DNA from: a virus
Lineage: Duplodnaviria > Heunggongvirae > Uroviricota > Caudoviricetes
Length of the DNA stretch: 25,625 bases
Reading direction: 5' to 3' (one strand)
Virus record (IMG/VR): IMGVR_UViG_2531839476_000020
Within the stretch, counting starts at the first letter, position 1. Every line of letters starts with the position of its first letter. The notes below the pieces were generated by a model, which searched no databases, had not been told where the DNA came from, and saw only the letters and a list, made by a program, of their open reading frames with translations. The position numbers and the translations under genes were made by a program. Below are positions 752 through 2,293 of this stretch, piece after piece.

Positions 752-2293
752 ATGAGCAGCTCACTTCCTGACGATATCAATGCACTGAAACGTCTCCTTG
801 CCGAACAGGAGGCGCTGAACCGTGCCCTGCTGGAAAAGCTGAACGAGCGTGAACGCGAAATAGACCATCTGCAGGCACAGCTGGATAAGCTGCGCCGGAT
901 GAACTTCGGCAGCCGCTCCGAAAAAGTCTCCCGTCGTATCGCACAGATGGAAGCTGACCTGAAGGCACTTCAGAAAGAAAGTGATACCCTTACCGGTCGG
1001 GTTGACGACCCGGCCGTGCAGCGCCCGCTGCGTCAAACCCGCACCCGCAAACCGTTCCCCGAATCACTCCCCCGCGATGAAAAACGGCTGCTGCCGGCAG
1101 CATCATGCTGCCCGGAATGTGGAGGCTCACTGAGCTATCTGGGTGAGGATGCCGCCGAACAGCTGGAGTTGATGCGCAGCGCCTTCCGGGTTATCCGGAC
1201 TGTACGTGAAAAGCATGCCTGTACTCAGTGCGATGCCATCGTGCAGGCCCCCGCGCCTTCACGGCCCATCGAGCGGGGTATCGCAGGACCGGGGCTGCTG
1301 GCCCGCGTGCTGATCTCAAAGTATGCAGAGCACACCCCGCTGTACCGCCAGTCTGAAATGTACGGCCGCCAGGGCGTGGAGCTGAGTCGTTCACTGCTGT
1401 CGGGCTGGGTGGATGCATGCTGCCGGCTACTGTCACCGCTGGAAGAAGCGCTTCAGGACTATGTGCTGACTGACGGTAAGCTCCATGCTGATGACACGCC
1501 TGTCCCGGTGCTGTTGCCAGGCAATAAGAAAACGAAGACCGGGCGGTTATGGACCTACGTTCGTGACGACCGTAACGCCGGGTTCAACGCTGGCGCCGGC
1601 GGTGTTGTTCGCTTACAGCCCGGACAGAAAAAGGCATCCATCCGCAGACCCATCTTGCGGGGTTCAGTGGTGTACTGCAGGCGGATGCATACGCCGGGTT
1701 CAACGAGCTGTGCCGGGATGGCCGGATAACGGAAGCCGCCTGTTGGGCTCACGCCCGCCGTAAAATCCACGATGTGCACGTTCGCACCCCGTCAGCCCTG
1801 ACGGAGGGAGCGCTGAAACGGATCGGCGAACTGTACGCCATCGAGGCAGAGATAAGGGGAATGACGGCGGAGCAGCGCCTTGCCGAACGTCAGTTGAAAA
1901 CGAAACCGCTGCTGAAATCCCTGGAAAGCTGGCTGCGTGAAAAAGATGAAAACCCTGTCGCGACACTCAGAACTGGCGAAAGCGTTCGCATACGCCCTGA
2001 ACCAGTGGCCGGCGCTGACGTACTATGCAGATGATGGCTGGGCTGAGGCGGACAATAACATCGCTGAAAATGCGTTGCGGATGGTCAGTCTGGGCCGCAA
2101 AAACTACCTGTTCTTCGGTTCGGATCATGGAGGAGAGCGGGGAGCGCTGCTGTACAGCCTGATCGGGACGTGCAAACTGAACGGAGTGGAGCCCAGAAAG
2201 CTACCCCCGCTATGTCCTTGACGTCATAGCCGACTGGCCGATAAACCGGGTCGGCGAACTGCTCCCCTGGCGCGTAGCACTGCCGACTGAATA
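752..2293 (+). pseudogene. IS66-family transposase TnpC, interrupted by at least four frameshifts
   Basis: Transposase homology continues across four frames (752-1729, 1485-1763, 1774-2034, 1937-2221, then ...YVLDVIADWPINRVGELLPWRVALPTE ending 2293). Frame switches sit at short homopolymers near 1585, 1645, 1940 and 2195. Confidence 0.75.

Follow-up and report, generated by a model that had tools for sequence, protein, structure and literature searches.

When frame breaks gather in one part of a draft sequence, are the genes that carry them dead, or is the sequence wrong? This question arises for the window analysed here, a stretch of 25,625 nucleotides that equals bases 2-25626 of AKNI01000035.1 (378 kb), a contig of the draft E. 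coli assembly GCA_000268205.1. The contig opens inside a copy of the IS66-family element ISEc22, which sits in a lambdoid prophage. A preliminary description listed breaks in the tnpC gene of the element, in a primase gene, and in a DnaN-like gene, and pointed to homopolymer miscalls as the likely signature, with genuine decay as a further possibility. The features discussed are collected in Table 1. The frame breaks in the window have differing causes, and they are taken up below gene by gene.

Table 1 Features of the window and the changes located in them.
Feature	Position	Strand	Remark
ISEc22 (IS66 family), partial	1-2331	+	99.6% identity to annotated ISEc22 copies
tnpA	1-359	+	5' end off contig; C6 to C5 at 215-219, premature stop 232-234
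tnpB	356-703	+	intact; identical to reference copy
tnpC (DDE transposase)	752-2293	+	four +1 insertions, giving four frames
Extra T (T to TT), first frame break	1583-1584	+	from alignment to intact ISEc22
Extra A (A4 to A5), second frame break	1628-1632	+	from alignment to intact ISEc22
Extra A (A4 to A5), third frame break	1940-1944	+	from alignment to intact ISEc22
Extra C (CC to CCC), fourth frame break	2192-2194	+	from alignment to intact ISEc22
Substitutions A>G, A>G, T>C	1712, 1808, 2206	+	private; Y320C, E352G, L484P
Lambdoid prophage, early, regulatory, and lysis part	2332 to ~19217		nearest: E. coli E110019 and two NCTC genomes
Extra C	2590		unique flank of IS; holin ATG to aGTG; non-homopolymer
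Shifted base, AA-T-A6 to AAA-T-A5	2626/2627		unique flank of IS
Primase-like gene (Zn_Ribbon_Prim, DUF7146, Toprim_3)	6703-7670	-	A6 to A5 on coding strand
Beta-clamp-domain gene	15250-15818	+	frameshifted; lone G lost between 15486 and 15487
Integrase (ssrA) island with low-GC HEF_HK/Response_reg_2 pair	~19300-24736
138-aa ORF in ssrA island, next to integrase	20651-21066	+	T8 to T7 at 20811-20817, leaving 62 aa
IS3 copy	24737 onward

The element at the start of the window showed its 99.6% identity over about 2331-2339 nt to copies annotated as "IS66-like element ISEc22 family transposase", and its genes follow the order tnpA-tnpB-tnpC known from the IS66 family, with tnpA and tnpB overlapping. 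Its right end (...GCACGCTTAC) falls at position 2331, whereas its left end and the flank on that side lie on another contig, the element being cut 45 nt into tnpA by the contig start. The window copy thus agrees with ISEc22 in nucleotide identity, gene order, right terminus, and the domain set of the repaired TnpC described below. It differs by the C5 run in tnpA and, in tnpC, by the four +1 insertions together with the three missense changes, and also in that its left end is off the contig and its insertion site was seen in no complete genome.

This site lies about 13 codons into the ydfR/DUF1327 gene of the prophage. UGCP01 and LAFA01, the flanks of which are 99.9% identical to those of the window, carry no IS there; because such close relatives are without it, the insertion is recent, and therefore the ISEc22 copy has had no time for decay. 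The ydfR::ISEc22 junction (2331/2332) was found in none of the complete genomes, in which matches either ended at the IS or came in two pieces. AIHA01000033.1, from the DEC collection, was considered as a second assembly of the same IS copy and was rejected, since it is without the adjacent lambdoid prophage; that its island stands at nearly the same contig coordinate as that of the window is a coincidence.

The changes in tnpC were called by aligning the window to an intact ISEc22 copy. All four breaks that had been described are real in the sequence, and three of their positions were right; the one placed near 1645 is about 15 nt off and belongs at 1628-1632. When the four extra bases were deleted, a TnpC of 512 aa was restored, in which LZ_Tnp_IS66, zf-IS66, DDE_Tnp_IS66, and DDE_Tnp_IS66_C were all detected above the Pfam cut-offs. 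Each of the three substitutions falls on the second position of its codon and is non-synonymous. Programmed ribosomal frameshifting, as in IS3, was discarded as an explanation because TnpC is read in a single frame in intact copies of ISEc22. The runs concerned are 1-4 bases long in intact copies, which is not what a phase-variable tract looks like.

Subsequently, the alleles were looked for elsewhere. The insertions at 1583 and 1628 were absent from all 4165 ISEc22 places in 1967 complete E. coli genomes. Across 1690-2290, none of 13823 places had more than one of the five changes that the window has in this interval, and the CCC allele at 2192 was unseen among them. The A5 allele at 1940 occurred elsewhere only in one unrelated, diverged, and already frameshifted IS66 copy (ECO_1_S). 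In IMG/VR, each of the four insertion alleles had 0 exact matches, against 70 for the canonical A4 allele at 1628. Furthermore, the 325-aa product (ORF 752-1729) and the 91-aa product, which are specific to the frameshifts, were found on this contig only, among 153 billion gene positions. A source copy with the tnpC alleles was sought among 5426 complete genomes, IMG/VR, and the large gene collection, and none was found. With the exception of the 1940 allele and its one unrelated carrier, the tnpC changes are thus private to this assembly, whereas the tnpA C5, the primase T5, the T7 run at 20811-20817, and the beta-clamp deletion are not. The C5 allele of tnpA, the product of which corresponds to WP_001341328.1, was found with 100% identity in 26 complete records with differing ISEc22 insertion sites; it is either a real variant that transposes or a recurrent miscall of the C run.

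The private changes did not stop at the end of the element. The changes at 2590 and 2626/2627 lie about 260-300 nt outside the IS, and no exact match to them was obtained in 4233 places of complete genomes. The aGTG created at 2590 is left as a possible start of the holin gene. Altogether, nine private events (five one-base insertions, three substitutions, and one shifted base) fall within the 1045 nt from 1583 to 2627, across the IS end at 2331, so that the patch disregards both gene and IS boundaries. No more than five candidate private changes were counted in the remaining 24.6 kb of the window (binomial p=5e-10 for the clustering in the patch), and two of these are the run-length calls T5 at 7592-7596 and T7 at 20811-20817, the alleles of which recur in other assemblies. 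Outside 1583-2627, no homopolymer length was private to the assembly in 23 kb with 150 runs of at least five bases. Bases 1-1582 of the IS are clean apart from the C5 in tnpA, and the same assembly traversed the IS3 copy at the other end of the window without private errors. The patch is located 1.6-2.6 kb from the contig end and not at its extreme.

The spectrum of the changes was then compared with natural variation. Diverged ISEc22 copies in an IMG/VR sample differed by 106 substitutions and 0 indels, whereas in the window copy 3 substitutions stand beside 5 indels (Fisher p=4e-7). Other indel-rich copies did exist in this sample, with 2-6 private one-base indels and 1-4 substitutions each; all of them were in drafts (IMG series 2526164xxx and 2534681774), several at contig ends. 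The IMG/VR contigs L115, L083, L125, L090, and L099 carry such copies, and L115 has four deletions within 68 nt.

The position of the breaks in runs of 2-5 bases, on which the preliminary description had relied, discriminates poorly, since runs of 2 or more take up 46% of the window bases. The association within tnpC is nevertheless real. In a simulation of four random tnpC insertions, all four extended a neighbouring base with P=0.037, and run lengths as long as those observed were reached with P=0.0004. Slippage and sequencing error would both yield such an association.

The break in the gene with the beta-clamp domain has another origin. The gene is frameshifted as described, although the break is at 15486/15487 and not at 15505-15512, and it is not in a homopolymer: the reference reads atcGctg and the window atcctg, so that the missing G is flanked by two C's. 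The identical deletion was present in the complete genome of E110019, where PGAP calls the gene "frameshifted", and in 10 of 10 related loci from other assemblies. In contrast, the G is kept and the 189-aa gene intact in 35 other complete genomes (at least 99% over the 591-nt query), including two that were inspected. Because E110019 and ten related loci have it in common, the deletion is real, and the idea of a homopolymer miscall fails for this gene. The beta-clamp-like gene is a genuine inherited pseudogene; a single G was lost in an ancestor of the prophage lineage and then inherited. This is the standard case of pseudogenes in cryptic lambdoid prophages, in which a gene such as this one keeps an inherited deletion and IS insertions disrupt the prophage further; we noted no difference from it.

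For the primase-like gene, the evidence points in both directions. Its run had rightly been described as one base short (T5 on the plus strand, A5 on the coding strand), at 7592-7596 rather than 7593-7597. Most relatives have T6 there, and the intact allele encodes 322 aa; in the window, the gene is split into ORFs of 62 and 260 aa, with the break preceding the zinc ribbon. The stop of the 62-aa ORF overlaps the ATG of the 260-aa DUF7146-Toprim ORF (ATGA, 7482-7485), and from this arrangement the C-terminal part, which is without the zinc ribbon, could be translated by coupling.

The 62-aa product that marks the T5 allele was found on seven contigs including that of the window. Two of them, UGCP01 and SRR060744, have the background of the window (identical for SRR060744), and ERR181300 is a clean assembly with a diverged haplotype (99.06% identity); three of the seven are visibly noisy. 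T5 was present in 0 of 77 complete genomes, and the count in IMG/VR was 0 against 24. The closest relative, UGBS01 (99.984% over 19 kb), has T6 at the primase run, and over these 19 kb it differs from the window only by T5/T6, T7/T8, and one substitution. A miscall at this break is about as likely as a real allele: T5 recurs, also on a clean diverged haplotype, yet it is rare, and UGBS01 has T6.

A comparison of two T5/T6 runs 2.1 kb apart, at 5469-5474 and 7592-7596, bears on the same point. All four combinations of their lengths exist on the otherwise identical prophage (window, UGCP01, SRR060744, LAFA01, and E110019), and therefore recurrent change is certain, by slippage or by miscalling. 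Runs of 6 and 8 bases are prone to natural slippage and to miscalling by sequencers alike.

The T7 allele of the 138-aa ORF appears in 557 blocks of the collection. T7 and T8 are each frequent among public assemblies, where the two lengths span at least two haplotype groups; the tract is possibly a hot spot of slippage or a site of phase variation. The exact island haplotype of the window was found at no other locus. That an allele is seen elsewhere was not accepted as proof that T5 or T7 is true in this strain, since each run has two likely lengths and chance coincidence is expected. From the sequences compared, the primase T5 and the T7 at 20811-20817 each have near even odds of being true in this strain.

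Taken together, these results suggest that the tnpC frame breaks are probably consensus errors, a local assembly artefact in a low-quality stretch. The contig begins in a multi-copy IS, and the approximately 1 kb joining the prophage to this IS (1583-2627) would have been built from thin or low-quality reads; we infer that poor read support produced the patch. In this way, the stretch would have acquired its five inserted single bases, its three miscalled bases, and the one base that is shifted, and the real copy would probably be an intact ISEc22 of the ordinary kind, which moved into ydfR of the prophage recently. Draft consensus errors of this class, the homopolymer-type indels of flow-based or long-read platforms, are likewise private one-base indels that mostly extend a base and cluster in a multi-copy element near a contig end; the patch also has paired over- and under-calls (GGAAG to GGGAG at 1808; AA-T-A6 to AAA-T-A5 at 2626/7), and a comparable syndrome is present in the ISEc22 copies of the other drafts. 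It departs from the class in that the insertion at 2590 and the substitution at 1712 follow no homopolymer logic, and in that 1.6-2.6 kb separate the patch from the contig end. Genuine decay, that is, a dead ISEc22 with four frameshifts and three missense changes accumulated via slippage and point mutation, is unlikely. IS copies do decay, complete genomes contain IS66 transposase genes annotated as frameshifted, and the three substitutions are all non-synonymous, as they would be without selection; however, the relatives without the insertion are only about 0.1% apart in the flanks, so that about one change would be expected and not eight, and the databases searched hold no source copy with these alleles. 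Homopolymers are also where slippage acts, and, with the exception of the +C at 2590, the insertions in the patch (four of five) lengthen an existing base as slippage would; the indels there are insertions throughout, though, whereas spontaneous E. coli indels in mutation-accumulation studies are not known to be insertion-biased, and natural ISEc22 variants have substitutions only (106:0). The tnpA C5 in 26 complete records and the A5 at 1940 in one other genome fit decay as well, but private changes that run on into the unique flank would not result from decay of the IS either before or after transposition.

That homopolymer miscalls of the platform account for every frameshift in the window, including those of the primase and DnaN-like genes, is very unlikely. 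This reading is refuted for the beta-clamp gene, the lone G of which is missing from independently sequenced genomes as well, and the lack of private homopolymer lengths outside 1583-2627, the wide occurrence of T7, and the T5 of a clean assembly on a different haplotype also argue against it; in its favour are the position of six of the seven gene frameshifts in runs, the indel-heavy differences between UGBS01 and the window over 19 kb, and the rarity of T5 elsewhere. There is an even smaller chance that the patch is a real insertion-biased burst, for instance of error-prone synthesis linked to IS66 transposition, or, separately, that T7/T8 is a slippage switch. The least probable reading is a localised burst of real mutation through error-prone repair synthesis across the IS-prophage junction, at or after transposition. 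The nine clustered changes do straddle this junction, but the same syndrome is found in ISEc22 of other drafts at unrelated sites. Furthermore, we know of no mechanism for a 1-kb tract dominated by +1 insertions, and gap repair after IS66 insertion fills the 8-bp target duplication only.

The window combines an ordinary copy of ISEc22 with a type of draft-assembly error that is already known and with ordinary prophage pseudogenes; there is no new biology, and the relevance of the case is mainly one of annotation hygiene. The miscall reading of the preliminary description is well supported, if indirectly, for tnpC, where the changes are private, clustered, insertion-biased, and part of a patch that extends into the flank; what it describes is a local patch and not a signature of the platform across the window. 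Its list of breaks in tnpC, the primase, and the clamp gene was partly confirmed but omitted the tnpA C5, the T7 at 20811-20817, and the +C at 2590, and its statement that every frameshift is at a short homopolymer does not hold for the lone G of the beta-clamp gene. Its caution that genes should not be called dead without checking was appropriate, and it is justified for tnpC, since this contig by itself should not lead to a record of a decayed transposase; calling the beta-clamp-like gene a pseudogene is safe. Homopolymer position alone does not separate error from mutation. The discriminating properties are the privacy of an allele, clustering across element boundaries, and the ratio of indels to substitutions in comparison with natural variants.

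Several observations on the remainder of the window and on its relatives are added. Between the integrase of the island and the IS3 copy lies a gene pair of low GC content (about 33%; 21139-24607), which encodes a 572-aa HATPase_c/HEF_HK protein and a 582-aa Response_reg_2 protein; a PADLOC scan of this pair and three other ORFs gave no match. E110019 (L003; 12691-13087 and 23273-24486) has defects of its own: its Q antiterminator is frameshifted by a C7 run (C6 in the window, at 5810-5815), and it carries an inserted IS3 at the equivalent of window position 15988. In UGCP01 (L005/L013), four one-base deletions within 9623-10066 are private, most of them in runs of C.
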